A DNA stretch of 64,000 nucleotides from Capsulimonadaceae bacterium. Its GTDB lineage: Bacteria; Armatimonadota; Armatimonadia; Armatimonadales; Capsulimonadaceae. Position numbers and translations under genes: made by a program. Below are positions 1 to 48,527 of the stretch, in pieces (within the stretch, counting starts at the first letter, position 1; every line of letters starts with the position of its first letter). The DNA lies in assembly GCA_965215505.1 (NCBI GenBank), contig OZ244065.1, positions 2,176,001 to 2,240,000 of the forward strand. Direction: 5' to 3'. The notes beneath the pieces are model-generated. The model ran no database searches. It saw only the letters and a list, made by a program, of their open reading frames with translations, and was not told the origin of the DNA.

Positions 1-2781
1 TACATCTTTTGGAACTTTCAGGAACCTCAGGAGGGCAAGTGGGACTTCTCCGGGGGCCACGATCTGGACGCCTTTCTAAAGCTCGTCAAGCAACTGGGCA
101 TGTACGCGACCGTGCGCGTCGGCCCCTATATCTGCGCCGAATGGGACAGCGGAGGCTTCCCGGTCTGGCTCCGGTTCAAGCCGGGCCTCAAGGTCCGCAC
201 CGATAATCCCGAGTTTGAAGCGGCCGTCGATGATCTCTACGACCACATGCTGCCCATTGTTGCTGCCAACCAGATCAACCACGGCGGCGCGGTAGTCCTC
301 GTGCAGCTCGAAAACGAGGATCCGGATGGCTGGGGCACCGAGCTTCCGAATGGTTACTTCCGACATTTGCAGGCCAAGGCGATCGCCGACGGAATCCAGG
401 TCCCCTACTTCTTCAGCGGTCTCCACCACGGCGGCGATCCCGGAGGAGACAATCCCTGGGCCAGCGCTCCGCGGACGAGCCCCTGGTACACCACCGAATT
501 CTGGCCCGGCTGGGCCGTCAACTACGGGGACCTGAACGCGGGCGACCTCCGCAAGTACGACCGCGGCACCTGGAAGATCGTCGCCCACGGCGGCAACGGC
601 TACAACTACTACATGCTCTGCGGCGGCACCAACTTCGAGACCTGGAACGATGACGAGGTCACTTCCAGCTACGACTACAGCGCTGCCATCGGCGAGTCTG
701 GCGGTCTCCGGCCCATCTACTACCGGTTCAAGCGTGCCGCCTACTTCGCAACCAGTTTTCCCAGCGTGCTGGAAGAGAGCGATAACGCTACCGACGCCTA
801 CCAGAGCGCGGCCACCAACCCTGAGATTCAGGTGACCGCCAGGAAGAGTCCGGCCGGAGCAATCCTCTTCCTGGACAACAACAGCGACAAGCCCGTGCAG
901 ACTCAGGTGAAGGGTCCGGATGGGGTTCTCTACCCGACGGCGGGGTCACTGACGGTCGATTCCGGGCAGATCGTTCCCATTGTCACCGATTACCGACTCC
1001 TTCCGGACGTCACGCTGCAGATGGCGGCCGCCAACATCCTGGGGATCGCCTCGCAGGGAGCCACCACCACCGTGGTTATCTATGGCCCGCCCGGGGACCC
1101 GGCTGAGCTGCGGTTCAGGGCTCCAGCCGGGGCGGTTGTAAAGAGCCAGACGGTGGCTTCATCCGGCTCCCTCTCCGCTGCGGGCAGCCACGGCGAGTTC
1201 GATCTGAAGGTACGGTTTGGGGAGGGCAGGCCGGGCGAAGCGACGTTCGAGATCGGTGCCGAGCGGCTGCGCGTCGTGGCTGCCAGTACGCAGGAAGCCG
1301 ATCACACCTGGTTCGTTGACGGCGGGGGCACGACCTACGTCATCGCAGGACCCGAGTACGTCGGCGACGTCAACGGCGACGCGACGACCGTCAACGTTGA
1401 GGACTACAAGAAGTACGCCGCATCGGCGTCGGCTGACGTGGTGGTCTATGGCCCGGGTGGCAGCGGACGCATTCTGTCCCGTGCCGCGGCCGACCCGAAT
1501 GCCGCGGTTGACTTTAACCCGCCAGCCCTAGGCACATGGGAGGCCCGCAGCGGCAGTGCCCAAGCAGCCGGTGACTACGCCGGTATCGGGTGGCTCGCCA
1601 GCCAGGACCCTCTCCAGATGGGGGCGGATGGCGACTACTCTGCCTATGCCTGGTACCGGGCCACAATCACTCCTCCTGCGGCCGGGACCTACACCCTCAA
1701 CTTCTCGGATGCGGGGGATTGGATCTCGGTCTTTGTCAACGGCAAGCACGCCGCCAGCAGCAAAGTCCAGGAGCGGGACAGCGGCCCCGTCGCCCGGCAC
1801 GTCACTGTCACCCTCCCGGCCGGCCCCAGCGCCGTCGCTGTCCTCGCCGCGCACTATGGGCGGAACAGGCTTCTCGGGATTCTTGGACCGATCGACACGA
1901 TCTACTCGAAGGGAGTCAGCGGTCCGGTCGCCCTCTCCCGATCCACCAATGAGGTCTCCCTCACCACCTGGCGCTGGAAATCCGACGCCAACGGCGAGGG
2001 CGACTCCGCCGCCATGACCGCCTCCGATCTGGATACCGGCGGTGCCGGTTGGAATGCGGGCAAGATCGGCGAGGACATCTTTCACGGGAAGCCGGGCTTT
2101 GCATGGTTCCGGAGCATCCTCCCCGCTGTGAAAGGCGATCACCACCAGCTCCACTTTAAATCGGTGGACGACAACGCCACCGTCTACCTGAACGGGCGCC
2201 GCCTCGCGCATCATGAAGGCTGGACCAGTCCGTTCGACGTCGCCCTGGACTCGGCGTGGAAACAGGGTGGACCCAACAACCTGGCCGTTCTGGTGCAGAA
2301 CGTTGACGGAGGTGGTGGCATCATGGGCGATGTGACGCTCACCAGCTCCGAAGGAGATCAGCCCGTGCGCGGCTGGAAGATGCAGGGCGGGCTGGGCGCC
2401 ATCAGTCCAGACCAGGGCTGGAGCCCGGCTGCCAGCGCCGGCAACACCGCCGACACCGGCGCCGCCATGTTCTACCGGACAGCCTTCACTGTCACCCCGC
2501 CAACTGCCGCCGGTCCCCACCCGATCCTGCGCGTCTCGCTTAACAGAATGTCCCGCGGCTTCGTCTGGCTCAATAGACATAACCTGGGCCGGTATCCTGA
2601 CAGGGAACCGGTGGACGGTCTGTACCTGCCCGAATGCTGGCTCAAGAATGGCGTTAACAGCCTGGTCGTCTTCGACGAAGAGGGGAATGCCCCGTCGGGA
2701 GTCAAGCTGGTTGTGGAGGCCGAAGCCTCCCGCACCATCACGCCGTGGTCCGCCGCGGGCGCCAAGAGCGTCCATCGCTAA
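1..2781 (+). CDS. GH35 beta-galactosidase with C-terminal jelly-roll domains (5' end outside the window)
   Basis: Frame is open from base 1 (YIFWNFQEPQEGKWDFSG...). GH35 motifs RVGPYICAEW, QLENE, TEFWPGW, NYYMLCGGTNF, TSSYDYSA. Confidence 0.9.
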   Translation, partial: YIFWNFQEPQEGKWDFSGGHDLDAFLKLVKQLGMYATVRVGPYICAEWDSGGFPVWLRFKPGLKVRTDNPEFEAAVDDLYDHMLPIVAANQINHGGAVVLVQLENEDPDGWGTELPNGYFRHLQAKAIADGIQVPYFFSGLHHGGDPGGDNPWASAPRTSPWYTTEFWPGWAVNYGDLNAGDLRKYDRGTWKIVAHGGNGYNYYMLCGGTNFETWNDDEVTSSYDYSAAIGESGGLRPIYYRFKRAAYFATSFPSVLEESDNATDAYQSAATNPEIQVTARKSPAGAILFLDNNSDKPVQTQVKGPDGVLYPTAGSLTVDSGQIVPIVTDYRLLPDVTLQMAAANILGIASQGATTTVVIYGPPGDPAELRFRAPAGAVVKSQTVASSGSLSAAGSHGEFDLKVRFGEGRPGEATFEIGAERLRVVAASTQEADHTWFVDGGGTTYVIAGPEYVGDVNGDATTVNVEDYKKYAASASADVVVYGPGGSGRILSRAAADPNAAVDFNPPALGTWEARSGSAQAAGDYAGIGWLASQDPLQMGADGDYSAYAWYRATITPPAAGTYTLNFSDAGDWISVFVNGKHAASSKVQERDSGPVARHVTVTLPAGPSAVAVLAAHYGRNRLLGILGPIDTIYSKGVSGPVALSRSTNEVSLTTWRWKSDANGEGDSAAMTASDLDTGGAGWNAGKIGEDIFHGKPGFAWFRSILPAVKGDHHQLHFKSVDDNATVYLNGRRLAHHEGWTSPFDVALDSAWKQGGPNNLAVLVQNVDGGGGIMGDVTLTSSEGDQPVRGWKMQGGLGAISPDQGWSPAASAGNTADTGAAMFYRTAFTVTPPTAAGPHPILRVSLNRMSRGFVWLNRHNLGRYPDREPVDGLYLPECWLKNGVNSLVVFDEEGNAPSGVKLVVEAEASRTITPWSAAGAKSVHR

Positions 2782-3154
2782 GGTCTCTGAGAAGGAGAGT
2801 CGTCGTGGCGTGCAGACCGGAGCATTGTCGGCACCCTTTGTCACGTCGATCTGCGGGAAACTCCCGCCCAATGCCAAGGGCGGTCACACATGCGCTGGAG
2901 GAGCAAGCGCGAACTGCTCGCACTCAGTAGAACGCAATGCGTCTGCCGACGGCCCAGCGGACGTCTAAGTCTATGTCAACGGCGTCCTCGCGGCGTCCGC
3001 GCCGAGATATACCGACGGCTACACTTTCCTGCCGATGTCCGATGCCGCCCGCGAGGCTCTGCATCCGGGGCAGAATGTGCTGGCTTTCCCTTGTCAACAA
3101 ATGTCATCAAATGATCGGCGGCTAGGTCGCCGATGTCAGAGTCACGGCGGAACA

Positions 3155-4333
3155 ATGAATCACTTCCAAACCTCACGGCGCGTTGCCATCCTGATGATCG
3201 TCGCGGCCATGCTCGCAGTCCTGTGCCTCCAGAGGCCTTGCAGTGCCGATCGGCAGCCTTTCCTGCACGGTGCAGACCTGTCCATGCTCAAGGTTGACGA
3301 GGACGCAGGAGTCGTTTACCGGGATCACGGACGGTCGGGCGACTCCATCCAGATTTTCAAGCAGCACGGCTGGAACATGGTCCGCCTGCGGCTCTGGGTC
3401 CACCCGAGCGGACAGAGTGGGATGGTATGCGATTTGGGTTATGTTGGGGCTTTGGCACGGCGCGCGAAGGCCGCCGGAATGAAGTTCTACTTGGACATCC
3501 ACTACTCCGATACCTGGGCCGATGCGGGCAACCAGAAGAAGCCGGCCGCATGGGCCAACGACACATTCGACACGCCCCGCAAGCTTTACGAGGATGTCTA
3601 CTGGTACACATCGAACGTCCTCTACACGCTGGCCCACACCTACCATGCCGCCCCCGACTATGTCTCGATCGGCAATGAGATCACCTACGGCATGCTCTGG
3701 CCGGACGGCTACCTGGGAGCAGTCAAGGGGGCATGGAGCAACTGGACCAAGTATGCGACCCTGGTGAACAAAGGCATTCAGGGGGCGCAGCGCGGCGCCC
3801 ACAAAGCCGGCATGACGATGCCAAAGTTCATCATTCATGTCTCGTTCGGCCCGTATTGGAACGTCGTCAATGGCTTCTTCAGCGGCCTCACGTCGGCACG
3901 GGACATTACGGGGCAGCCGGTAAGATTCGACGTCATCGGCCTGAGCTACTATCCAAACGACAAGACCGACCTGTCGGACATCAAGGGTGTGCTCGCGAAC
4001 TGCGCCCAGAAGTTCGGCAAGCCGATCTTGCTCTGCGAGACGGCTTATCAATATCGCGAGACCGGCAGCGCAAACAGCGGCCTTTATCCGCAGACCCCGG
4101 CCGGGCAAGCCGCCTATCTATCCGATCTGGTCACCGCCGTGAAAAACACGCCGGATGGACTGGGACTCGGCCTCTGCTACTGGGAACCGGAAGCGCTGCC
4201 GAATCCCGTCACCGACGCCTATGCGTATGGCAGTTGGCGGGACAGCGGATGGAGCGCCTTATTCGATACGCAAACGGGCGAGGCCGAGCCGGGAATCGCC
4301 GCCGTTGGCACAAGCGCCGCGAAGGCGAGATAA
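3155..4333 (+). CDS. GH53 endo-1,4-beta-galactanase, secreted
   Basis: GADLS, RLRLWVHP, DIHYSDTWADAGNQKKP, IGNEI, GLSYYP, CETAY, YWEP motifs; signal peptide after ATG 3155. Confidence 0.9.
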   Translation: MNHFQTSRRVAILMIVAAMLAVLCLQRPCSADRQPFLHGADLSMLKVDEDAGVVYRDHGRSGDSIQIFKQHGWNMVRLRLWVHPSGQSGMVCDLGYVGALARRAKAAGMKFYLDIHYSDTWADAGNQKKPAAWANDTFDTPRKLYEDVYWYTSNVLYTLAHTYHAAPDYVSIGNEITYGMLWPDGYLGAVKGAWSNWTKYATLVNKGIQGAQRGAHKAGMTMPKFIIHVSFGPYWNVVNGFFSGLTSARDITGQPVRFDVIGLSYYPNDKTDLSDIKGVLANCAQKFGKPILLCETAYQYRETGSANSGLYPQTPAGQAAYLSDLVTAVKNTPDGLGLGLCYWEPEALPNPVTDAYAYGSWRDSGWSALFDTQTGEAEPGIAAVGTSAAKAR

Positions 4334-38059: not shown

Positions 38060-39520
38060 ATGACCGCCCCATTACCGCCCGACGAGACCGAACGCCTGCG
38101 CGCCCTGTACGAGTGCAGCATCTTGGACACCGCGCCCGAGGAAGTGTTCGACGATATTACCCGCTTGGCCGCCCAGGTCTGCGGCGTGCCCATCGCCGCC
38201 GTTACCCTCATTGACGCGGAGCGGCAGTGGCTCAAATCCGTCGTGGGCCTGAGCGGCAGGGAAACTCCGCGCGATGTGGCCTTCTGCGCCCACACGATCC
38301 TCCAGGCGAATATTTTGGTCGTCCCCGACGCCCGCGCCGACCTCCGATTTGCCGACAACCCCCAGGTGACGGGGCCTCCACACATCCGCTTCTATGCGGG
38401 CGTGCCGCTGATCTCCGAGGAGGGACGTGCGCTCGGCTCCCTGTGCGTCATTGACACTCTTCCCAGGACTCTCACGCCGGACCAGGAGGCGACCCTGTGC
38501 CTGCTGTCGCGTCAGGTCTGTAGCCATCTCCGGGCGGCCCGCCGGGCCACTGAGCGGGAACGGGCCGAGGCCGCCCTCGTCCAGACCCATTCGGCGCTGC
38601 GGACGGTCCTGGAGAGCGCGCCCCTCATCCTCTACGCCGCCGACGCCGACGGGACGGTGACCCTGTCCGAGGGAAAGGGCCTGTCGGCGCTCGGGCTGGG
38701 GCCGAGCGATGCGGTCGGGCACTCCGTCTTCGAGTTCAGCGCGGGGGACACCGAGAACGAGACGAATATGCGCCGCGCATTGGCGGGCGAAGCGATTTCC
38801 TACGACGCCCGCGTGAACAGCGTGTGGCTGCACACTGAGGTGCGGCCCCTGCACAATGCGGACGGGACGCCCTCGGGCATCATCGGCGTCTGCCTGGATG
38901 TGACCGAGCGGATGCGGGCGGAGGAGCGGGTCAATGACCATGTGGTCATCCTGGAGTTCCAGGAGCTGCAAAAGAATGAGCTGGAGAAGGCGAACGCGGA
39001 ACTCGCGTCGCTCGCGACCACAGACGGGCTGACGGGCCTAAAAAATCATCGGGCTTTCCAGGAGAGGCTGGCGGAGGAGGTCAGCCGGAGCGCCCGCTAC
39101 GGGACGCCGCTGTCGCTGATCCTGCTCGATGTGGACCGATTCAAGCACTATAACGATGCTCACGGCCACCCGGCGGGGGATGCAGTCCTCATGGCGGTGG
39201 CGAGCATCCTCCAGCAGAGCGCGCGGGAGACGGATTTGGTCGCCCGATACGGGGGCGAGGAATTCGTGCTGATCCTGCCCCAGACCGACCTGGACGGGGC
39301 ATCGGCCTTCGCCGAGCGCCTGCGCGTCTCAGTCGAGGGCCATTCCTGGCCGGTGCGCGCCGTCACCGCCTCCTTCGGGGTGGCATCCCTGCGGCTGGAG
39401 GACTGCGGCTCGGACGTGATCGCCCGCGCGGACGAGGCGCTGTACCGGTCCAAGGCGGCGGGGCGGAACCGGGTGACGTCCTCAGCCGGGCCTTGCGGCC
39501 CCGTCGTCCGGCATCCGTGA
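38060..39520 (+). CDS. GAF-PAS-GGDEF diguanylate cyclase
   Basis: GAF (AFCAHTIL, RFYAGVPL), PAS, DGLTGL, RETD I-site, RYGGEEF. Confidence 0.92.
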   Translation: MTAPLPPDETERLRALYECSILDTAPEEVFDDITRLAAQVCGVPIAAVTLIDAERQWLKSVVGLSGRETPRDVAFCAHTILQANILVVPDARADLRFADNPQVTGPPHIRFYAGVPLISEEGRALGSLCVIDTLPRTLTPDQEATLCLLSRQVCSHLRAARRATERERAEAALVQTHSALRTVLESAPLILYAADADGTVTLSEGKGLSALGLGPSDAVGHSVFEFSAGDTENETNMRRALAGEAISYDARVNSVWLHTEVRPLHNADGTPSGIIGVCLDVTERMRAEERVNDHVVILEFQELQKNELEKANAELASLATTDGLTGLKNHRAFQERLAEEVSRSARYGTPLSLILLDVDRFKHYNDAHGHPAGDAVLMAVASILQQSARETDLVARYGGEEFVLILPQTDLDGASAFAERLRVSVEGHSWPVRAVTASFGVASLRLEDCGSDVIARADEALYRSKAAGRNRVTSSAGPCGPVVRHP

Positions 39521-40564
39521 CAGCTCCGCCTCGATCTGCCCGACGGTCGGCAGACTGTCCAGGAGGTCATCGGGGAGGGCGTCGGTGACGCGGAACCCGG
39601 CGACTCCGATGGGCGTGGCGTTGTTCCGCAGCGCGTATTCCACCGTGACCTGCTCGCGCGTCTTGCACAGGATCAGGCCCAGGCTCGGCGCGTCCGTCGC
39701 GTGGCGCATCAGGTCATCCACGGCGGACAGGTAGAAATTCATCTTGCCCGCGAACTCCGGCACGAACTCGGTCATCTTCAGGTCCACGACGACGAAGCAG
39801 CGCAGGCGCAGGTGGTAGAACAGAAGGTCGAGGTAATAGTCCTTGCCGCCGACCTCTAGGTGGTGCTGGCTCGCGACGAACGAAAACCCGGTGCCCATTT
39901 CCAGCAGGAACTTCTGGAGGTGTGCCAGCAGCCCGTGTTCAAGATGCCGCTCCTGGGCGTCCGGTCCCAGCGTGAGGAAGTCGAAGTTGTACGGGTCCTT
40001 CAAAATCTGCTGGGCCAGGTCCGACTGGGGTGGGGGCAGCGCGCGTGAGAAGTTCGTTAGCGCCTGGCCCTGACGCCCGTACAGGCCGCTCCCGATCTGG
40101 TGTTCCAGGACGGCCCGGCTCCAGCCGTGTTCATGCGCGGCACGGATATACCAGAGCCGCTGGTCAGCGTCTTTGACCCGGTCCAGCAGCCGAACGTGGT
40201 GGCCCCAGGGCAGCGGCGAATTGTGCAACAACTGTTGCACAATTGCGGAGTCGGGATAGGCTTCCGCGAACGCGCGCATGTATTTGAGGTTGCGCGGAGA
40301 AAAGCCCTCCACCCCTGGAAACGCCGCCTTTAGGTCCACCGCCAGGCGATCCACGACTTTCGCGCCCCAGCCGTGCCGCGCCTGCCGCTGCCGGACCTCA
40401 TCGCCGATCTGCCAGTAGAGCCAGACCACCTCGCGGCTGAGGGACAGGGCCGCCCGCACCTGTGCCGTCTGGATGCGGCCCTTGATGTCCGTGAGGAAGT
40501 CCGCGTACCCCTCGAAGCCTCGGGCGATCCCGCCGGCCTCCTCTTCAGTCTCTCCTTGATCCAT
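39482..40564 (-). CDS. YhcG/DUF1016 PD-(D/E)XK nuclease family protein
   Basis: LYWQIG, GFSPRNLKYMR, KDPYNFDFL, DLLFYHLRLRCFVVVDLK, GKMNFYL. Confidence 0.9.
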   Translation of the reverse strand: MDQGETEEEAGGIARGFEGYADFLTDIKGRIQTAQVRAALSLSREVVWLYWQIGDEVRQRQARHGWGAKVVDRLAVDLKAAFPGVEGFSPRNLKYMRAFAEAYPDSAIVQQLLHNSPLPWGHHVRLLDRVKDADQRLWYIRAAHEHGWSRAVLEHQIGSGLYGRQGQALTNFSRALPPPQSDLAQQILKDPYNFDFLTLGPDAQERHLEHGLLAHLQKFLLEMGTGFSFVASQHHLEVGGKDYYLDLLFYHLRLRCFVVVDLKMTEFVPEFAGKMNFYLSAVDDLMRHATDAPSLGLILCKTREQVTVEYALRNNATPIGVAGFRVTDALPDDLLDSLPTVGQIEAELSRMPDDGAARPG

Positions 40565-41842: not shown

Positions 41843-42316
41843 ATGGCGGAACTGGATCTGGCCGCGCAGCTACGCGCGACGACGGAGAGGGCCTACAGCA
41901 ACCTGGTCAACGACCTGAACGCGCTGGACGAGGAGAAGGCGAGCGGCAGCCCGGATACGGCACTGCGCCCGGCGATCAAGGTAGTGGCGGAGTGCGGGTC
42001 GGTCAACGGGCTTCTGGCGGAACTGGTGACGACCGGCACCGCGACGAGGCCGTCGCCGGAAGAGCGGGAGGTCTATTACGCCTCCATCACGACGCGCGCC
42101 GAGGCGCTGGCCGAGCTGGAGAAGGGGACGCAAAAGCTGTACGCGGCCATTGACGGCGTCGCCCCGGACCGCTGGGGCGAGACGGTGCCGACGCCTCTTG
42201 GCCCGATGACTGTCCTGGGGGCGGCAAACTTCGCCGCCCTGCACATGATGTACCATGACGGGCAGATCAACTACCTGCACATGCTGCACGGCGACACGGA
42301 GATGCACTGGACGTAG
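41843..42316 (+). CDS. DinB-family protein
   Basis: Helical protein ending HMMYHDGQINY; AAGGAG RBS. Confidence 0.7.
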   Translation: MAELDLAAQLRATTERAYSNLVNDLNALDEEKASGSPDTALRPAIKVVAECGSVNGLLAELVTTGTATRPSPEEREVYYASITTRAEALAELEKGTQKLYAAIDGVAPDRWGETVPTPLGPMTVLGAANFAALHMMYHDGQINYLHMLHGDTEMHWT

Positions 42317-42342
42317 GCGGCTGACGGCGGGCGCGGGGGCGG

Positions 42343-43413
42343 TCAGCGCCCCCGCGACCGACCGGCTTGGAGTGTGACGAGGCCCGTCCCATCGGGGTTC
42401 TCCACCAGCGCGGCCTCGACGGGCAGGAACTGCGGGACGACCCACAGCACGGTCCGCAGGTGTTCTGTCACCTGAGAGGTCGTCCAGCGGCTCTCGCCCG
42501 CCGTCAGCGCCATCGGCAGGACAAGCTGGTCCGCCAGATGCTCCTCGCAGGCCGCGCCCGTCTCCCACCACGCTTTGAAGGCGTGGCAGACCTCCTCGGC
42601 GACGGCTTCCATGCGCTTGCCGCGCTCGCCGATGGCGGAGAAACCCGCCAACCCGCCTTCGCACTCGGCGACCAGAAGAACGGCAGCCCCCGCCCCGACC
42701 GAGGGCGCTTCGCGCATCTCGGTGGATAGCTCCACCGGCAGGCGACCCACTTCCTGACGCACGGCGGCGACGCCTCTCTCAGCGACGGTCGGAGGCAGCC
42801 CTGATGTCACGACGAGGGCCGTCACGGCGCGCAATCCGCCCCGCTCCGTCAACGTGATAGGCGAAATCGCGGCGTTCCCCGCGACCTCGGCACTCACCGC
42901 CCCTCCCCCTTTAGGAAAGAACCCCGCCTTCGGCGACAGCAGAGAAGCGGCCAGGCCGTGCCGCGCCAGTGTCGGCAGATAGACGCGCTCCAGGTAGTCC
43001 GCCGTCGGCGCGTGCGAGACGTGCGTCCCGCCGGTGACGGTGACGCGGGAGGCGGCAGGGGCAAAGGCGAGCGGCATCAGGACGGTTTGCAGGACGAGGG
43101 CCGTCGCCCCCGCCGTGCCGATGGCGAAGTGGTAGACGCCGTGCGTCGGCGGTGCCTGTGGGGCGAAGCGGAGGCGGACCGACCCGATCTCCGCGCCTTC
43201 CAGCGAGGCCGCACACAGCTCGGCTGCGGCCTTGACCGAGGCAAGATGCTGGGGCTGGAGGCCGGGCCGGGCGCGGCCCGCGCGTATCCGCACGATCTCG
43301 ACGGGCCGCCCCGTCAGGGCCGATAGGGACAGGCTCGTCCGCAAAATCTGCCCGCCGCCCTCCCCGTGCGACCCGTCAATGGTGACGCTGGATTGTGTGT
43401 CTAAGTTCTTCAT
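42343..43413 (-). CDS. rtcA: RNA 3'-terminal phosphate cyclase
   Basis: DGSHGEGGGQILRTSLSLS, RPGLQPQHL, GGTH, EHLADQL, TEHLRT. Confidence 0.95.
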   Translation of the reverse strand: MKNLDTQSSVTIDGSHGEGGGQILRTSLSLSALTGRPVEIVRIRAGRARPGLQPQHLASVKAAAELCAASLEGAEIGSVRLRFAPQAPPTHGVYHFAIGTAGATALVLQTVLMPLAFAPAASRVTVTGGTHVSHAPTADYLERVYLPTLARHGLAASLLSPKAGFFPKGGGAVSAEVAGNAAISPITLTERGGLRAVTALVVTSGLPPTVAERGVAAVRQEVGRLPVELSTEMREAPSVGAGAAVLLVAECEGGLAGFSAIGERGKRMEAVAEEVCHAFKAWWETGAACEEHLADQLVLPMALTAGESRWTTSQVTEHLRTVLWVVPQFLPVEAALVENPDGTGLVTLQAGRSRGR

Positions 43414-43430
43414 GGCTGTCTTAGTATTCC

Positions 43431-43558
43431 CGTGCAGGCAGCGCGCCTATCCGAGACTTGTGCCCCTTCGGGGGCGGCAGGCGTCGGATCTTGGTGTTCG
43501 CTTTTGGAGACACGGACCGCCCGTGACCTCCCTTGATGGCGGCGCGCATGCATGCACG
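43431..43558 (-). ncRNA. Candidate ~128-nt structured RNA between tRNA-Arg and rtcA
   Basis: Ends pair (CGTGCA-t-GCA-t-GCGCGCC with GGCGCGC-TGC-c-TGCACG) and enclose two hairpins; no family recognised. Confidence 0.35.
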
Positions 43559-43561
43559 AAG

Positions 43562-43637
43562 TGGTGCTCCCGACAGGATTTGAACCTGTGGCCTCGACCG
43601 TCGCAGGATCGCGTTCTATCCGCTGAACTACGAGAGC
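43562..43637 (-). tRNA. tRNA-Arg(GCG)
   Basis: 76-nt cloverleaf: GCTCTCG/CGGGAGC, A20, anticodon loop CT-GCG-AC, TTCAAAT, encoded CCA. Confidence 0.85.
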
Positions 43638-43647
43638 AATTCGAAAA

Positions 43648-43718
43648 CTCCTCGACCCGGATTCGAACCAGGGCGAACGCATTAACAGTGCGTGATGCTG
43701 CCGCTACATCATCGAGGA
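43648..43718 (-). tRNA. tRNA-Asn(GTT)
   Basis: TCCTCGA/TCGAGGA, G73, ACGCA-CTGTTAA-TGCGT, TTCGAAT; no CCA. Confidence 0.85.
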
Positions 43719-43763
43719 TCACGGCCCAGCGGTCTGTCATGACCGCCGGACCAAGTTAGAGAA

Positions 43764-43836
43764 TCGTGGCGGTGGGAATTGAACCCACGATTTACAGGGT
43801 ATGAGCCTGCCGCCTTACCAGCTTGGCTTCGCCACA
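43764..43836 (-). tRNA. tRNA-Met(CAT), atypical
   Basis: TGTGGCG/CGCCACG-A, GCAGG-CTCATAC-CCTGT, GTGGG-TTCAATT-CCCAC; no CCA. Confidence 0.8.
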
Positions 43837-43889
43837 ATGCCGTCTCTCGCTGCCCCTACCAGTCAGGGGGCAGGGGCAGAGTCCGGACG

Positions 43890-44123
43890 TCAGATGTCTG
43901 ACGCCCGGCGCGTGTGCTTGTAGTCCTGGCTGCGCTCGCGGACATATTCCACGGGCTGCCGCGCCCCGGCCCCGGTGACCTCCCAGCCGTCCTGGGTGAT
44001 TCCGTCCTCCGTCAGCCGCAGGAACCGCCCGACGACGGCGTGCTTCTCCGGTATCCAGGCCATCTGGTGCGCTGGCCCCCGCCGGAGCCGGCACTGGACG
44101 TAGTACTGTGTGTAGCCGGACAT
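43890..44123 (-). CDS. Small hypothetical protein (77 aa)
   Basis: MSGYTQYYVQCRLRR...RRASDI*; strong RBS GAAGGAG. Confidence 0.7.
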   Translation of the reverse strand: MSGYTQYYVQCRLRRGPAHQMAWIPEKHAVVGRFLRLTEDGITQDGWEVTGAGARQPVEYVRERSQDYKHTRRASDI

Positions 44124-44149
44124 GATGTTTCTCCTTCCCTTTCTGACTG

Positions 44150-44782
44150 TTACACGGCGGCCCGCGCGACCAGCGCCTGGCTGATCGCGGCGGGTACTTC
44201 GGCGTAACCGGCGACGCTCATCGAGAACGACGCCCGCCCCTGCGTCAGCGAGCGCAGGTCGGTCGTGTAGCCGAACGTCTCGGCGACCGGGACGGTGGCC
44301 CGCACGACGGCCGTGCCGTCGGCCAATGCGCTCTGGCCCAGAAGATGCCCGCGACGCCGGGCGATGTCCCCCAGCACCGGCCCGACGAAGCCGCCCGGCG
44401 TCAGCACTTCGACCAGGCCGATCGGCTCGATGAGGATCATCGGCGCGTGCTTGCAGGCATCCAGGAACGCGAGACGCCCCGCCTCGGCGAAGGCGTAGTC
44501 GGTCGAGTCCACCGCGTGCCAGCTCCCGTCCACGACCGCCACCCGCACGTCCACCACGGGGTAGCCCGCCAGGACGCCGCCGGCCATCGCACTCCTGACG
44601 CCCTTCGCGATGCTCGGGAGGAAGATGCGGGGGATGACGCCGCCCACGAGGCCGCTGACGAACTCGAACCCCGCCCCCGCCTCCAGGGCTTCCAGCATAA
44701 GGACGCAGTACGCCTTCTGGCCTTTGCCGCCGTTCTGCTTGTCCACGCGGCCTTCGCCGCGATATCTGGTCTGGTCGGTCAT
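44150..44782 (-). CDS. Stand-alone elongation factor G domain IV-V protein (no GTPase domain)
   Basis: KQNGGKGQ, GGVIP, GYPVVDV, DGSWHAVDS, EPI, GDIARRRG, FGYTTDLRSLTQGRA; own RBS GAAGGAG, with a tRNA directly upstream. Confidence 0.88.
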   Translation of the reverse strand: MTDQTRYRGEGRVDKQNGGKGQKAYCVLMLEALEAGAGFEFVSGLVGGVIPRIFLPSIAKGVRSAMAGGVLAGYPVVDVRVAVVDGSWHAVDSTDYAFAEAGRLAFLDACKHAPMILIEPIGLVEVLTPGGFVGPVLGDIARRRGHLLGQSALADGTAVVRATVPVAETFGYTTDLRSLTQGRASFSMSVAGYAEVPAAISQALVARAAV

Positions 44783-44815
44783 GGTCTTTCTCCTTCGTTC
44801 CCGGCGTTCGAGTGA

Positions 44816-44888
44816 AGCGGAAGGCGGGGCTTGAACCCGCAGCCTTCATGGTGGCACCGTGACGCTCCGCCGATTGAGCTACTTCCGC
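44816..44888 (-). tRNA. tRNA-Gly(GCC)
   Basis: GCGGAAG/CTTCCGC, U73, TCACG-GTGCCAC-CATGA, TTCAAGC; no CCA. Confidence 0.8.
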
Positions 44889-44925
44889 ATTGACTTAGTT
44901 CCGCGTGTCCTGCTCGTGGCAGGGA

Positions 44926-45000
44926 TGGAGATGGTCGGAATCGAACCGACGGCCTCCTGTTCTTCAGACAGGCGCTGCTACCGGACTGAGCTACATCTCC
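44926..45000 (-). tRNA. tRNA-Phe(GAA)
   Basis: GGAGATG/CATCTCC-A, CCTGT-CTGAAGA-ACAGG, TTCGATT; no CCA. Confidence 0.85.
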
Positions 45001-45016
45001 ACAATCAACAGCCGAG

Positions 45017-45053
45017 ACAAACAAAACGGCCTCTCGCGTAGTGCGGGAGGCCG
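45017..45053 (-). terminator. Intrinsic terminator C, upstream of tRNA-Phe
   Basis: GGCCTCCCGC-actac-GCGAGAGGCC followed by GTTTTGTTTGT. Confidence 0.75.
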
Positions 45054-45082
45054 GAGGGTTCATGGTGTGGCAGGATCGCTTG

Positions 45083-45247
45083 CTACAGCAAACGCTCCCT
45101 CCCCCATAAACCCTTCGCCCCCGCCATAAAGCGGGCACCGCCCATCGCCTGGACCTGACCTAACCCCGGCGTGACACGGCTCAGAATCAGGCGGCTTCCC
45201 GCCTGGTTCGCTTGAGCCGGTATGAAATTATTATTTGTCGCTATCAT
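45083..45247 (-). CDS. Putative leader peptide C (54 aa)
   Basis: MIATNNNFIPAQANQAGSRLILSRVTPGLGQVQAMGGARFMAGAKGLWGRERLL*; contains a G-rich segment complementary to the 5' arm of terminator C. Confidence 0.55.
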   Translation of the reverse strand: MIATNNNFIPAQANQAGSRLILSRVTPGLGQVQAMGGARFMAGAKGLWGRERLL

Positions 45248-45258
45248 TGCTGTTTAGG

Positions 45259-45267
45259 AGTATACCA
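45259..45267 (-). promoter_or_regulatory. Extended -10 promoter (internal P2)
   Basis: TGG-TATACT, 11 nt upstream of the leader C ATG, in an AT-rich stretch; no clear -35. Confidence 0.5.
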
Positions 45268-45337
45268 CGGTTTCATGGCAAATAACCATAAAGTTTACGG
45301 AGCTATCAATTTTATTTTCATGGCCGGTTGATCTGGA

Positions 45338-45409
45338 TGGGGACGCAGGGAGTTGAACCCTGACTTCGCGCTTAAAAGGCGCACACACTGACCGTTATGT
45401 TACATCCCC
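45338..45409 (-). tRNA. tRNA-Lys(TTT)
   Basis: GGGGATG/CGTCCCC-A, TGCGC-CTTTTAA-GCGCG, CAGGG-TTCAACT-CCCTG; no CCA. Confidence 0.82.
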
Positions 45410-45425
45410 GTCTTCTGACGCCGCC

Positions 45426-45464
45426 ACAAAAAGATCGGCCCCGCGCTGTCTGCACGGGACCGAT
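45426..45464 (-). terminator. Intrinsic terminator B, upstream of tRNA-Lys
   Basis: ATCGGTCCCGTGC-agaca-GCGCGGGGCCGAT followed by CTTTTTGT. Confidence 0.78.
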
Positions 45465-45488
45465 TGTGTCTGTCTCTTTTCCTCTTCC

Positions 45489-45641
45489 CTAAAGCGGTGG
45501 GAGGAGCCGCCGATGAGGCGGCGACACGATCGGTCCCAGTATGAAGTTTTTGAGAAAGCCTGAAGCCGGGCGTAGCAGAGCCACGGCCAGGCGGTGACCC
45601 GGCATCATCTTTGTATTGCGTTTCGTCGTCAGGCTGGTCAT
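45489..45641 (-). CDS. Putative leader peptide B (50 aa)
   Basis: MTSLTTKRNTKMMPGHRLAVALLRPASGFLKNFILGPIVSPPHRRLLPPL*; contains GGGACCGAT, the exact complement of the terminator B 5' arm. Confidence 0.55.
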   Translation of the reverse strand: MTSLTTKRNTKMMPGHRLAVALLRPASGFLKNFILGPIVSPPHRRLLPPL

Positions 45642-45676
45642 TAGGTTTCGTCTCGGGTCAAGTAGGCGGGCGAATG

Positions 45677-45721
45677 CAAACACAAAACGCCCGCCTTCGG
45701 CACGGTGGCAGAAGGCGGGCG
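45677..45721 (-). terminator. Intrinsic terminator A
   Basis: CGCCCGCCTTC...GAAGGCGGGCG (11-bp perfect stem) followed by TTTTGTGTTTG. Confidence 0.8.
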
Positions 45722-45757
45722 CTCGGAAAAAGGTCTTCCTGCGGGCTGGGCGCGAGG

Positions 45758-45874
45758 TCACTCGCGCCAGCCACCTCCTGCGGGGATAGGGCGACGCCCC
45801 TGGAAACCGAATGAGGGTTTCAGGGTGCCGCCGACCATCGGGCCGTTATTCGGTTGTTTCAGGGGCGAGTTCAT
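45758..45874 (-). CDS. Putative leader peptide A (38 aa)
   Basis: MNSPLKQPNNGPMVGGTLKPSFGFQGRRPIPAGGGWRE*; GCAGGAGGTGG can pair with CCGCCTTCTGC of terminator A. Confidence 0.6.
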   Translation of the reverse strand: MNSPLKQPNNGPMVGGTLKPSFGFQGRRPIPAGGGWRE

Positions 45875-45884
45875 CGTGGGGGAC

Positions 45885-45914
45885 ACTCTACCCGACGCGC
45901 ACTGCCGTTGTCAA
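45885..45914 (-). promoter_or_regulatory. Sigma70 promoter P1 of the tRNA/rtcA locus
   Basis: TTGACA (45914-45909), 18 bp, TAGAGT; leader A ATG 10 nt downstream (near-leaderless). Confidence 0.6.
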
Positions 45915-45983
45915 GAGCAGACGGAAAGTTTTTCGCGGCGGCAGGAATTCCGCCGTGCGTGCGGTATAGTCTAGGGGAAAGAA

Positions 45984-48527
45984 ATGTCACCTAACGCCCC
46001 CACGAAGCCTCATTCCAAGCGCCCCCCGGCCGCACTGGCGACTGTCGTCCTGTTGTCGCTGCTGTCCTGGATGGCGCTGGCCGGTCCCGCCGCGCCGGAT
46101 GCTGTCGCGATCCGGCCTCTTGACAAGGCCGAAGCGCGCGGTGTCAATTACCGGCATCAGATCCAGCCGCTTCTGGCAAGCCGCTGCGGCCAGTGCCACG
46201 GCGGGGCCGCGCCGTCGGGGGGCCTCAGCGTCGTGTCACTGGCCGCGCTCCTGCGGGGCGGCGCGCACGGGTTGGACATAGTGGTCGGCAAGCCCGACGA
46301 GAGCGCGCTGATCCAGTATGTGCGCGGGCTGAGGACGCCCCGGATGCCGATGAGCGGCCCCGCCCTCTCGGTAGACGAGGTCCACTTGCTGCGCGAATGG
46401 GTTTTCGCCGGGGCGCGTGACGACGCGGTGGCAGGTGGCGCGGCGGGCGTCCAAGCGCGTCCCATCGCTCAGTTGCCAATCGAGGACGAGTCGGGATTGA
46501 GTCTCGCCGAGCTGCGGGTCAAGCACCTGGCCCGGCTGCCCCGCGCGCCTGCCGTCCCGGTCGTCAGTGCGCCCGCCTTCAACGAGATCGACCGCTTTAT
46601 CGCGGCGAAGTGGCGGGAAAAGAAATTCCCCACGCCGCCGGTCTGCGACGATAATGCCTTCGTGCGGCGGGTCTATCTAGACGTGGTCGGCGTCATCCCA
46701 ACGACCGCGCAAGCGCTGGCCTTTGTGCAGGACAGGACTCCCGGCAAACGAACGCGCCTCGTGGACGGTCTGTTGGCCCGTGATGACGACTACGCAGCCA
46801 ATTGGACTCCCTTCTGGGAGGACGCGCTGGCCTCCAACGGCGCGCACCAGGGCGGGGCCGGGTCACGCCCCAACCTGCGGTCCTGGCTTGCCGAGAACCT
46901 GCGGCACAACCGGCCCTATGATGAGATGGTCGCCGAACTGATCGACCCCACTTCTAGCGGCCCGACGGCCCCGCTGGCGCGCGGCTGGATACAGAACGCC
47001 GACCACACCGAGACGGCCCAGAGCGCGGCGTATGTCGCCCAGGTCTTCATGGGCACGGCGGTCAAGTGCGCCTCCTGCCACAACCACTTCCTGAACCCCG
47101 AGTGGCCCCAGAAGAAGTTCATGGGCTATGCCAGCTACTTTACGCCCCAGAACATGGAGGTGATCCGGTGCGAGGTGCATGAAGGCGAGTTCGTCCCGCC
47201 CACCTTCCTGTTCGACCAGCCGAGCGCGCGCAATGCCGCCGCCCACACGCCGCTCGATCAGGACCACCGCCTGCGTCAAGTTTCGCGGCTGATCGTGGAC
47301 CCCGAAAACCCCCGCTTCGCGACCTGTATCGTCAACCGCCTTTGGAAGCGCTACTTCGGCCTGGGCCTGGTCGAGCCGGCCGACGACTTCCGGGCGGAGG
47401 GCCGCGCTCCGAGCCACCCGGCCCTGCTGTCCTGGCTGGCCGATGATTTCATGCGCCACGGCTACGACCTGAAGCACACGATCCGGCTGATGCTGACCAG
47501 CCGCACCTATCAGCTCCGCTATGACCCGCGCCTGGCCGACACGTTCAGCGCCGCCGCCCCGGACGCCCCGCGCTTTTACCGCTCCCCCACCCTGCGCCGC
47601 CTGACCGAGGAGCAGCTTCTGGACAGCGTGAACGTCGCCATCGGCAACACGGGTGCGCCGCGCGCTTATTTGGACGGCGACTCGACCGCCCTTTCGCGCG
47701 CCCTCGGCAAGCCCGCCGCCCGTAACGAAGTTTCGACATCGCGCTCCGATGATGTCGCCGTCGTGCAGGCTCTGGAACTCCTGAACGGCGGGGAGTTCAA
47801 CCGCCGCGTCGCACTTGGAACGCTGGACCGGGAGTTGTCGGAGGAGCCGGAGTGGCCGCGCATCGTCAGCCGCGCTTATTGGGCGACACTGGGCCGCGCG
47901 CCGACTTCTAAAGAACTCGGGGCCGGCAACCAGTTTTTAGAAGCCGCACCGCCCATCCCGCCGAGCAGTCAGACCCCAACCGAGGCCATGTGGTGGGAGG
48001 ACGGCCCGCCCGCCGGGACGATGCTGCAAGGGCCGTGGCAGATAACCTCGGGCCTCGTCTACTCCGGCAAACAGGCCCACACCGCGCCCATCATGGCGGG
48101 CGCACAGCAGCACTACTTTCTGGGCGCGGCCACGCCGCTCTCCGTCGGGATGGGTGATACGCTGTTTACCTACGCTTATCTTGACCCGAAGGCCATGCCG
48201 CGCGAGGTCATGCTTCAGTGGAACGACGGCCTCTGGGAGCATCGGGCGTTCTGGGGCGAAGACCTGATCAACTTCGGCACGACGGCCACAACAAGCCGTC
48301 GGCGAATGGGCGACCTGCCCGCACCGGGAAAATGGGTGCGCCTGGAGGTCGCCGCCGACGCCGTGGGTCTGGCCGGGCACGAGATCGGTGGGATGTCTTT
48401 CGACCAGTTTGACGGGCGTGTCACGTTCGACCACAGCGGCGTGGTCCACGCCGTCCCGCCGCGCCCGGCCATCGTGGATATGCTGTGGGCGTTGACGGTC
48501 AGCCCGGAGTTCCAGTATATCCGGTGA
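45984..48527 (+). CDS. Planctomycete-type cytochrome c + DUF1549/DUF1553 (PSD1) protein
   Basis: CGQCH haem motif, FVRRVYLDVVG, CASCHNH, VNRLWKRYFGLGLV, PSHPALLSWLA, SPEFQY. Confidence 0.88.
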   Translation: MSPNAPTKPHSKRPPAALATVVLLSLLSWMALAGPAAPDAVAIRPLDKAEARGVNYRHQIQPLLASRCGQCHGGAAPSGGLSVVSLAALLRGGAHGLDIVVGKPDESALIQYVRGLRTPRMPMSGPALSVDEVHLLREWVFAGARDDAVAGGAAGVQARPIAQLPIEDESGLSLAELRVKHLARLPRAPAVPVVSAPAFNEIDRFIAAKWREKKFPTPPVCDDNAFVRRVYLDVVGVIPTTAQALAFVQDRTPGKRTRLVDGLLARDDDYAANWTPFWEDALASNGAHQGGAGSRPNLRSWLAENLRHNRPYDEMVAELIDPTSSGPTAPLARGWIQNADHTETAQSAAYVAQVFMGTAVKCASCHNHFLNPEWPQKKFMGYASYFTPQNMEVIRCEVHEGEFVPPTFLFDQPSARNAAAHTPLDQDHRLRQVSRLIVDPENPRFATCIVNRLWKRYFGLGLVEPADDFRAEGRAPSHPALLSWLADDFMRHGYDLKHTIRLMLTSRTYQLRYDPRLADTFSAAAPDAPRFYRSPTLRRLTEEQLLDSVNVAIGNTGAPRAYLDGDSTALSRALGKPAARNEVSTSRSDDVAVVQALELLNGGEFNRRVALGTLDRELSEEPEWPRIVSRAYWATLGRAPTSKELGAGNQFLEAAPPIPPSSQTPTEAMWWEDGPPAGTMLQGPWQITSGLVYSGKQAHTAPIMAGAQQHYFLGAATPLSVGMGDTLFTYAYLDPKAMPREVMLQWNDGLWEHRAFWGEDLINFGTTATTSRRRMGDLPAPGKWVRLEVAADAVGLAGHEIGGMSFDQFDGRVTFDHSGVVHAVPPRPAIVDMLWALTVSPEFQYIR

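Follow-up and report, generated by a model that had tools for sequence, protein, structure and literature searches.

The window analysed here, a stretch of 64,000 nucleotides (nt) from the chromosome of a Capsulimonadaceae bacterium, carries on its minus strand an operon of tRNA and protein genes with three short open reading frames (ORFs), leaders A, B and C, and three GC-rich hairpins followed by U-tracts, one between each ORF and the genes downstream of it. The genome, labelled G000, comprises 6.18 Mb with 66.5% GC and 63 tRNA genes; related genomes are labelled G0xx and related loci L0xx. An earlier reading of the sequence alone (the sequence-only reading) had proposed that the codons of the leaders mirror the tRNAs encoded in the operon, and that the leaders may sense the loss of exactly these tRNA species. 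The features of the locus, in their order along the minus strand, are as follows.

45885..45914, minus strand: promoter P1, sigma-70-like, its -10 hexamer 10 nt ahead of the ATG of leader A
45758..45874, minus strand: leader A ORF, 38 codons and stop
45771..45781, minus strand: predicted 5' arm of the leader A antiterminator, codons 32-35, with its partner at 45716-45708 (9 bp)
45687..45720, minus strand: terminator 1, a stem of about -24.5 kcal/mol and then a U-tract
45489..45641, minus strand: leader B ORF, 50 codons and stop
45523..45537, minus strand: predicted 5' arm of the leader B antiterminator, within the ORF right behind the GFLKNF codons, with its partner at 45474-45460
45434..45464, minus strand: terminator 2, 13 bp and then a U-tract, its 5' arm being common to the antiterminator
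45338..45409, minus strand: tRNA-Lys(UUU), extra copy, identical to the housekeeping copy at 44 of 76 aligned positions
45259..45267, minus strand: promoter P2, an extended -10 element in an AT-rich stretch, 11 nt ahead of the ATG of leader C, as read from the sequence
45083..45247, minus strand: leader C ORF, 54 codons and stop
45104..45118, minus strand: predicted 5' arm of the leader C long helix, codons 44-48, right behind the MGGARF codons, with its partner at 45065-45051
45027..45053, minus strand: terminator 3, its first 3 bases being the last 3 of the long helix
44923..45001, minus strand: tRNA-Phe(GAA), extra copy with an anticodon loop unlike that of the housekeeping copy
44816..44888, minus strand: tRNA-Gly(GCC), extra copy
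44150..44782, minus strand: protein of 210 amino acids (aa) consisting of EF-G domains IV and V only (EFG_IV 3e-29, EFG_C 2e-24)
43890..44123, minus strand: p77, a family-less, phage-type protein of 77 aa
43562..43837, minus strand: tRNA-Met(CAU), tRNA-Asn(GUU) and tRNA-Arg(GCG), extra copies
42343..43413, minus strand: RtcA, RNA 3'-terminal phosphate cyclase, last gene of the operon (RTC 1.4e-76, RTC_insert 3.9e-16)

Promoter P1 agrees with the consensus at 10 of 12 positions, a quality reached by two sites where shuffled sequences gave an expectation of 0.4, and both of its hexamers are conserved in the relative G012. The P2 block is conserved in G012 as well, and the distance from the -10 element to the ATG is 10-11 nt in the other type-C units read; at P2 the consensus scan flagged instead a weak overlapping site at 45256-45227. 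As far as it can be read from the sequence, the RNA anatomy is that of a leader-peptide attenuator, and its elements, promoter (B being internal), ORF, terminator and a predicted alternative pairing, are present in units A, B and C. A search of positions 42000-46500 against Rfam, with E-values up to 1, returned only tRNAs and chance-level matches, and neither a T-box nor any other curated leader was among them. The leader peptides A, B and C have no match in Pfam or NCBIfam.

The six tRNA genes of the operon are extra copies. Each of their anticodons (Lys-UUU, Phe-GAA, Gly-GCC, Met-CAU, Asn-GUU and Arg-GCG) recurs elsewhere in the genome, and the locus tRNAs are 56-69% identical to the housekeeping copies over the alignment (44/76 to 53/77), with a different anticodon loop in four of the six. 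As divergent duplicates of housekeeping tRNAs they thus form a second, divergent tRNA set. The tRNA-Phe at 44923-45001 on the minus strand was delimited differently by the two programs, ARAGORN giving 79 nt with the anticodon at position 37 and Rfam 75 nt; it has extra bases in the D arm.

A family of related modules was collected by searching 41 related genomes at the DNA level, screening 71 genomes of the order for a motif, and scanning with p77. The terminator 3 motif was present in 10 of the 24 genomes of the genus and in none of the 47 other genomes of the order. The closest relatives (G012 and L041-L045) carry Lys, Glu, (Gln), (Pro) and His tRNAs ahead of the third terminator and Phe, (Ala), Gly, Leu, (Leu), Met, Asn, (Ile), Asp and Arg behind it, so the array of the window appears as a reduced derivative. 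Here, six tRNAs lie within 1.85 kb and are split by two protein genes, while the largest array among the relatives examined, L041, has 15. Further loci carry Gly, Leu, Ile, Leu, Asn, Asp, Arg and Ser, or Leu, Leu, Asn, Asp, Arg and two or three Ser, and still further ones Tyr with Lys, Cys or Ile, or only Pro and Met. The array of G016 includes a tRNA-Phe with the anticodon AAA (L014 2749-2822); A34 is unusual for bacteria, and the leader of this array has no Phe codon.

In unit B, a 15-nt stretch of the ORF (45537-45523) is predicted to pair with the 5' flank and the 5' arm of terminator 2. In a partition-function model with a ribosome footprint of 28 nt, the probability of this terminator is 0.91 without a ribosome, falls to 0.20-0.66 with the A site at codons 24-31, and is at least 0.93 from codon 32 onwards. 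Among 14 aligned type-B units, 97.1% of the cells of the terminator are paired, 16 cells at 5 pairs are double-changed, and none of 500 shuffles scored as high. For the type-B antiterminator, 79.9% of the cells are paired in the same 14 units as against 16-42% in slid controls, and its 7-bp core is paired in 13 of them with two compensatory double changes. In unit C, codons 44-48 pair in a 13-bp helix with a stretch that lies right ahead of the terminator and reaches three bases into it, and the stop codon is enclosed. This helix is paired in 88.9% of the cells across 16 units (slid controls 32-50%), with 27 double-changed cells at 9 pairs and again no shuffle out of 500 as high; in the equilibrium model the terminator drops at codons 23-25 alone. 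In unit A, codons 32-35 pair with the 5' arm of the terminator solely in nascent RNA lacking the 3' arm of the terminator and with the ribosome at or before codon 27; with a ribosome at codon 30 or beyond, the pairing is lost.

The codon content of the leaders was first counted in the sequence-only reading. Its figure for leader A, 18 of 38 codons readable by the six encoded tRNAs (Asn 3, Lys-AAA 2, Met 2, Phe 2, Gly-GGY 6, Arg-CGY 3), is exact. In leader B, 14 of 50 codons are readable (15 including AAG), and in leader C 17 of 54 (18 including AAG). The clusters it had pointed out are also in place: KRNTKMM and GFLKNF in leader B, with the antiterminator arm following directly on the latter, and NNNF and MGGARFM in leader C on the minus strand. 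As background, the set of ten codons was counted in 3,411 long ORFs of G000 with high GC content at third codon positions, where it makes up 18.7% of the codons, and in all 13,749 ATG ORFs of 30-60 codons of the same genome, where its mean share is 17.1%. The fraction of short ORFs that reach the share of the leader is 1.5e-4 for A, 0.054 for B and 0.019 for C; with the background restricted to 4,556 intergenic ORFs the values become 2.2e-4, 0.075 and 0.028, and a Fisher combination of the three leaders, done by hand, gives a P of about 2e-5. Leader A is thus clearly enriched beyond chance. Leaders B and C as whole ORFs are modestly enriched, and their signal sits in a short window ahead of the antiterminator. 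The AT-rich subset of Asn, Lys, Met and Phe codons, of which Asn, Lys and Phe had been said to stand out in this GC-rich DNA, is only marginally enriched when taken alone (P 0.020, 0.066 and 0.089 for A, B and C).

To follow the match between codons and cargo across related loci, 26 leaders were curated by coordinates and their cargo tRNAs listed; four type-C leader starts were trimmed by homology. For 18 of 22 tRNA species, presence of the tRNA in the operon goes with a higher share of its cognate codons in the leader. The shares with the tRNA present and absent are 6.2% and 0.7% for Met, 4.5% and 0.5% for Tyr, 4.7% and 1.4% for Asp, 5.6% and 1.8% for His, 6.5% and 3.1% for Arg-GCG, and 3.7% and 1.7% for Lys. 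When the cargo sets of 24 units (10 type-C and 14 type-A/B) were shuffled 20,000 times, the 403 observed matches exceeded the expected 294 +/- 16 (P 5e-5), and the excess holds within the leader types, with 205 matches against 173 +/- 8 in the type-C units (P 1.5e-4) and 198 against 141 +/- 12 in the type-A/B units (P 5e-5). One unit stands ahead of just tRNA-Pro and tRNA-Met, and its leader has 6 internal Met and 10 Pro in 52 codons.

The matching codons are concentrated right ahead of the antiterminator arm. In the type-B units with cargo, codons of the segment cargo occupy 21 of 90 positions in the 9-codon stall window, in which a halted ribosome should free the antiterminator, as against 32 of 528 elsewhere (Fisher P 2e-6), and in the ten type-C units a hand count gave cargo codons at 47 of 90 positions of the stall window as against 158 of 467 (z about 3.2). 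In G000 the stall windows of leader A (PSFGFQGRR) and leader C (VQAMGGARF) have 5 cargo codons out of 9 each; that of leader B (PASGFLKNF) also has 5 of 9 when the whole operon is considered as cargo and 1 of 9, Lys only, for the cargo of its own segment. These three windows coincide with the clusters flagged in the sequence-only reading. With respect to lost tRNAs, Asp is missing from the operon of G000, and its three leaders have no Asp codon as compared with 7 in G012. Where the leader A consensus of G012, L041 and L043 has its His, Asp and Glu codons and several of its Leu codons, G000 has other codons, mostly for Asn, Gly, Lys, Phe or Arg, and this leader is an exception to an otherwise weak tracking of tRNA loss.

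We consider it probable that the units are codon-matched, multi-codon leader-peptide attenuators which sense a shortage of the cognate tRNAs. The proposal that the leaders sense the loss of these tRNA species is supported by both the background and the homologous-locus comparisons, while the wording "exactly these" was too strong, as many other codons are present in the leaders. A number of results weigh against our explanation. Four of the 22 tRNA species (Gln, Ile-GAU, Ser-CGA and Phe-AAA) are not enriched. Sister pairs with different cargo are nearly alike in their counts (19/64 in G014-C and 18/62 in G003-C, 6/60 in G016-C and 8/55 in G005-C, and 9/64 and 10/70 in a further pair), and such contrasts, considered as proof of fast co-evolution, were set aside as mostly flat. 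Compared with the majority of five outgroups, G000 shows 9 changes from codons of lost tRNAs to codons of kept ones and 4 in reverse, a weak trend, and 33 of 57 codons of lost tRNAs are unchanged. The loci are kin and not independent, so the evidence is weaker than the permutation and Fisher P values suggest, and both leader starts and cargo lists were curated by hand. In related arrays, at least two tRNAs with a long arm escaped ARAGORN, and the array tRNA taken as Met could instead be an Ile tRNA carrying lysidine. On the RNA side, the long helix of unit C shares just three bases, the bottom base pairs, with terminator 3, so exclusivity is weaker there than in unit B. The equilibrium fold of unit A is always the terminator, with a probability of 0.98-1.00, and both arms are invariant in all six loci and so offer no covariation. 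Leaders A, B and C have no Shine-Dalgarno sequence, and the genes of the EF-G-like protein and p77 have strong ones. A look-up of sequencing runs listed no RNA run with this DNA. Finally, in G013 and G008 a leader-terminator unit of the same type precedes a DRB0094-type RNA ligase gene and p77 with no tRNA, so the module also functions where codon-matched cargo is absent, serving as a general sensor of stalling.

Equilibrium folding of unit A was likewise dropped as evidence for an antiterminator, as the terminator always wins and the alternative is seen just in the nascent-RNA fold. The long-arm tRNAs overlooked by ARAGORN were found by Rfam, with tRNA-Sec as the best model (49.2 and 45.9 bits), at L014 3119-3205 and L015 2170-2255, between tRNA-Asp and tRNA-Arg; the cargo lists of G016 and G005 are therefore short by one tRNA each.

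The alternative that survives best is that the units are general translation-stress sensors, which would be opened by any slowing on the leader, whether by antibiotics, ribosome damage or global starvation, and that the likeness of codons and cargo is inherited composition. We regard this as unlikely, though with a chance that has to be taken seriously. It would account for the tRNA-free operons of G013 and G008, for the sister loci that retain their leader composition after losing tRNAs, for the weak shift in the G000 lineage and for the many non-cargo codons, and the silent tRNA array of Anabaena is described as induced by general translational stress (PMC8421152). On the other hand, a general sensor does not explain why cargo codons are gathered in the stall window instead of being spread through the leader, nor why shuffling of tRNA sets is significant even inside one leader type. 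The shares of Met, Tyr and Asp codons are 3- to 9-fold apart depending on the presence of the tRNA, and leaders without those tRNAs fall below genome usage, with ATG at 0.7% as compared with 1.84%.

A second possibility is that the signal is amino-acid starvation, that is, uncharged tRNA, as in classical multivalent attenuators. Uncharged-tRNA stalling is established for the his and trp attenuators, and a stalled ribosome is blind to whether a tRNA is missing or uncharged. Nevertheless, tRNA genes, RtcA and RNA ligase would not ease an amino-acid shortage, and no biosynthetic or transport gene was present in any operon examined, which leaves this explanation improbable.

It could also be argued that the ORFs are untranslated and that the hairpins are ordinary terminators, processing sites or spacers between tRNA transcription units. 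The missing Shine-Dalgarno sequences would fit, and open frames come easily in GC-rich DNA, about one-fifth of 50-codon frames being open by chance on a rough estimate. Several observations make this very improbable. In the type-B and type-C units read, the ATG stands at a fixed distance of 9-12 nt behind the -10 hexamer, and the leader mRNAs would thus be near-leaderless as judged from the DNA. In leader A, the frame, length and stop are retained in 5 of 6 related loci, while the amino acids of the first two thirds vary; against G012, at about 80% DNA identity, start, length and stop are the same and 15 of 38 amino acids differ. Leader B stays open over a 57-nt in-frame indel relative to G012, and a 1-nt indel close to the end of the ORF moves the stop by no more than one or two bases. 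Leader C is set apart from its G012 counterpart by a 3-nt indel and is open in all 10 curated type-C units and in L041-L044, the 16 aligned type-C sequences varying by several indels. All 13 type-B ORFs share one frame across the antiterminator arm. The codon statistics given above speak against untranslated ORFs as well. A competing 90-codon GTG ORF (45761-45489), which spans terminator 1 and would connect the end of leader A with leader B, was ruled out, as a 4-nt indel in G012 breaks its frame.

Equally hard to sustain is a role as arrest peptides or drug sensors, in which the N-terminal Asn-rich and Pro-Pro-Ile-Ala-Ser-like motifs, both recurrent in type-B leaders and the N-terminal one in type C too, would stall for a small molecule or for lack of EF-P, since the Pro-Pro-Ile motif is encoded by the RNA arm, where compensatory changes alter the peptide (G012, G023b), and the stretch between the motifs is unconserved as peptide.

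The proteins of the operon point to RNA repair and to phages. The EF-G IV-V protein is not an assembly fragment, because there are about 35 clusters of stand-alone relatives of 178-225 aa with 53-93% identity, relatives of 204-221 aa among them, in some cases on contigs as long as 1.3 Mb; it may act on stalled ribosomes as an A-site mimic. For p77, no match was found in Pfam or NCBIfam, and 40 homologues were found among 5.8 billion clusters. Its predicted fold has a predicted local distance difference test (pLDDT) score of 83.9, and a Foldseek comparison of the model with the PDB gave no match at E-values up to 0.001. The fold matches uncharacterised proteins of the Caulobacter phage CcrColossus (E 1e-5, 40% identity) and the Sinorhizobium phage phiN3, and proteins of Caulobacter jumbo phages are matched in both fold and sequence. 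By tblastn, relatives were located in 16 phage records, whose genomes all measure about 280-595 kb. In CcrColossus, the one phage locus examined, the p77 relative (L073 4986-5207) lies right behind the last tRNA of an array, and distant relatives are found on tRNA-dense contigs of 37-41% GC (L052, L054-L058). Given the phage relatives of p77 and its tRNA-array neighbourhood, the module looks phage-derived, although it now lies amid ordinary chromosomal genes.

Upstream of the main tRNA block of CcrColossus, an annotated 65-aa ORF (L073 2391-2595) overlaps at its end an annotated rho-independent terminator, and the two may make up a leader-terminator unit of analogous kind. What lies in G021 and G023a between p77 and the preceding attenuator or tRNAs is a protein of 408 aa that has a PcfJ-like domain (6.8e-11; L038 2787-4013; L032 about 2065-3350, minus strand).

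In related loci, a DRB0094-type RNA ligase (TIGR02306, 182.8 bits with a cut-off of 151; L037 3436-4446) stands behind a type-B attenuator, an arrangement repeated in L039, L015, L018, L047, L048, L051 and L053, with or without tRNAs. Behind the ligase gene, several loci share a conserved element that is about 180 nt long and has a T arm like that of a tRNA (L014 1304-1369 and about 1620-1810; L015 about 1420-1610, minus strand; L018); a stretch beside it gave a partial match to YrlA (Y RNA-like) of 37.3 bits, under the gathering score of 69.

On our explanation by codon-matched attenuators, the locus would work through three transcription attenuators that depend on the ribosome, with A and B arranged in tandem and C served by a promoter of its own, which gate a phage-derived "spare parts" operon of six divergent supernumerary tRNAs, RtcA, the EF-G IV-V protein and p77. 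Leader translation would begin at the AUG about 10 nt past the -10 box, with leader B being started internally. A ribosome that reaches the end of the leader would cover or block the 5' arm of the antiterminator, so that the terminator forms and transcription ends. A stall in the approximately nine codons ahead of the arm, caused by scarce cognate aminoacyl-tRNA, would instead let the antiterminator form and lead to read-through into the tRNA and repair genes. Since the stall-window codons are largely those of the downstream tRNAs, the circuit would report the shortage of these tRNAs and be shut off by its own products. The trigger is likely to be tRNA damage or depletion, for instance by anticodon nucleases, which would fit the RNA-repair genes carried along (RtcA here and the DRB0094-type ligase in related loci). 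More tentatively, and as a possibility for which we would give rather less than even chances, the locus could be a domesticated phage "tRNA insurance" module acting as an autonomous immune or repair circuit: tandem attenuators would gauge housekeeping decoding codon by codon and, once an anticodon nuclease or toxin has removed the housekeeping tRNAs, induce spare tRNAs insensitive to the nuclease, enzymes for healing and sealing RNA ends (RtcA, RNA ligase), and the EF-G IV-V A-site mimic and p77 as ribosome-directed helpers, the relief of stalling would close the loop, and the same logic would apply at the heads of phage tRNA arrays.

Transcription attenuators with leader peptides are known from the amino-acid operons trp, his, leu, thr, ilv and pheA, and from pheST. 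General descriptions of them are given in PMC1183508 and PMC3082878. The units described here resemble those of amino-acid operons in having a short ORF near the promoter, an intrinsic terminator, the 5' arm of a predicted alternative antiterminator at the end of the ORF and regulatory codons just upstream of it, and, like the thr and ilv attenuators, they are multivalent, with several kinds of codons. They differ in their output, which consists of tRNA genes, RNA-repair proteins and translation-factor-like proteins rather than biosynthetic enzymes or a synthetase, in regulatory codons that match the anticodons of the downstream tRNAs, and in having three units per locus, two of them in tandem, with near-leaderless mRNAs predicted to lack a Shine-Dalgarno sequence. 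As with T-box riboswitches, an RNA acting in cis would toggle between terminator and antiterminator by the state of one tRNA species; unlike these, sensing is proposed to take place through the ribosome and codons and not by direct binding of tRNA, and the locus has no Rfam T-box match. The rtcBA RNA-repair operon is reportedly controlled by RtcR, with RtcA expressed on tRNA damage, in work ascribed to Hughes et al. in 2020. In our proposal, by contrast, the sensor is a stalled ribosome and not tRNA fragments; neither RtcB nor an RtcR-type sigma-54 activator was found within the operon or directly beside it, the rest of the genome not having been searched.

The cyanobacterial L-arrays are similar in consisting of horizontally acquired supernumerary tRNAs, the Anabaena L-array being described as silent by default and induced on impaired translation (PMC8421152). 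RNA-repair genes are neighbouring or co-regulated in both cases, namely rtcB in the account of the L-array, and RtcA and RNA ligase here. In that account (Santamaria-Gomez et al. 2021, PMC8421152), control of the Anabaena L-array is ascribed to a presumed repressor together with direct repeats that overlie the -10 box, unlike the ORF-terminator units found here, and the main text of the article uses none of the words leader, attenuator, terminator and uORF. By the definition stated in PMC4758250, an L-array has at least 20 tRNA genes at a density of at least 2 per kb. The array of the window differs from it in having six tRNAs interrupted by protein genes, while it agrees in duplicating the housekeeping set and in its apparent foreign origin. 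Mycobacterial tRNA arrays have been called a putative antidefence system in PMC12803027. Shared with phage arrays that counter tRNA-cleaving defence systems are the extra tRNAs, some of them with altered anticodon loops, and the occurrence of p77 in Caulobacter jumbo phages. In contrast to those arrays, the present one is chromosomal in Armatimonadota and flanked by ordinary genes, with related modules in 10 of the 24 genomes of the genus.

tRNA genes are usually viewed as constitutive or as controlled by growth rate. If our explanation is true, the cell would gauge its decoding capacity for given codons by means of a translated test frame and reply with exactly those tRNAs and with RNA-repair enzymes. 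This would link classical attenuation with the unexplained supernumerary tRNA arrays and with the arms race over tRNA-cleaving toxins and phage defences, and it would provide a function-based handle on p77, the stand-alone EF-G IV-V protein and the DRB0094-type ligase. Should it also hold at the heads of phage arrays, it would amount to a widespread, undescribed mode of tRNA gene regulation. Our search of the literature, with supplements (e.g., that of PMC8421152) not covered, turned up no publication in which leader-peptide attenuation is linked to tRNA genes or arrays. The variation within the genus, with 26 curated leaders and 22 cargo tRNA species, offers a ready set of natural "codon-swap" variants.

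The operon is flanked by genes for a DinB-like protein, an aldo-keto reductase-like ORF (so labelled without a family scan), a YhcG nuclease and a PSD1-type protein. The second last of these, a member of the YhcG/DUF1016 PD-(D/E)XK nuclease family, is encoded at 39482-40564 on the minus strand, about 1.8 kb past RtcA and with two plus-strand ORFs in between. Some 10 kb away from the locus, between positions 25000 and 35000 of the window, the GC content dips to 0.47-0.60 as compared with about 0.66.

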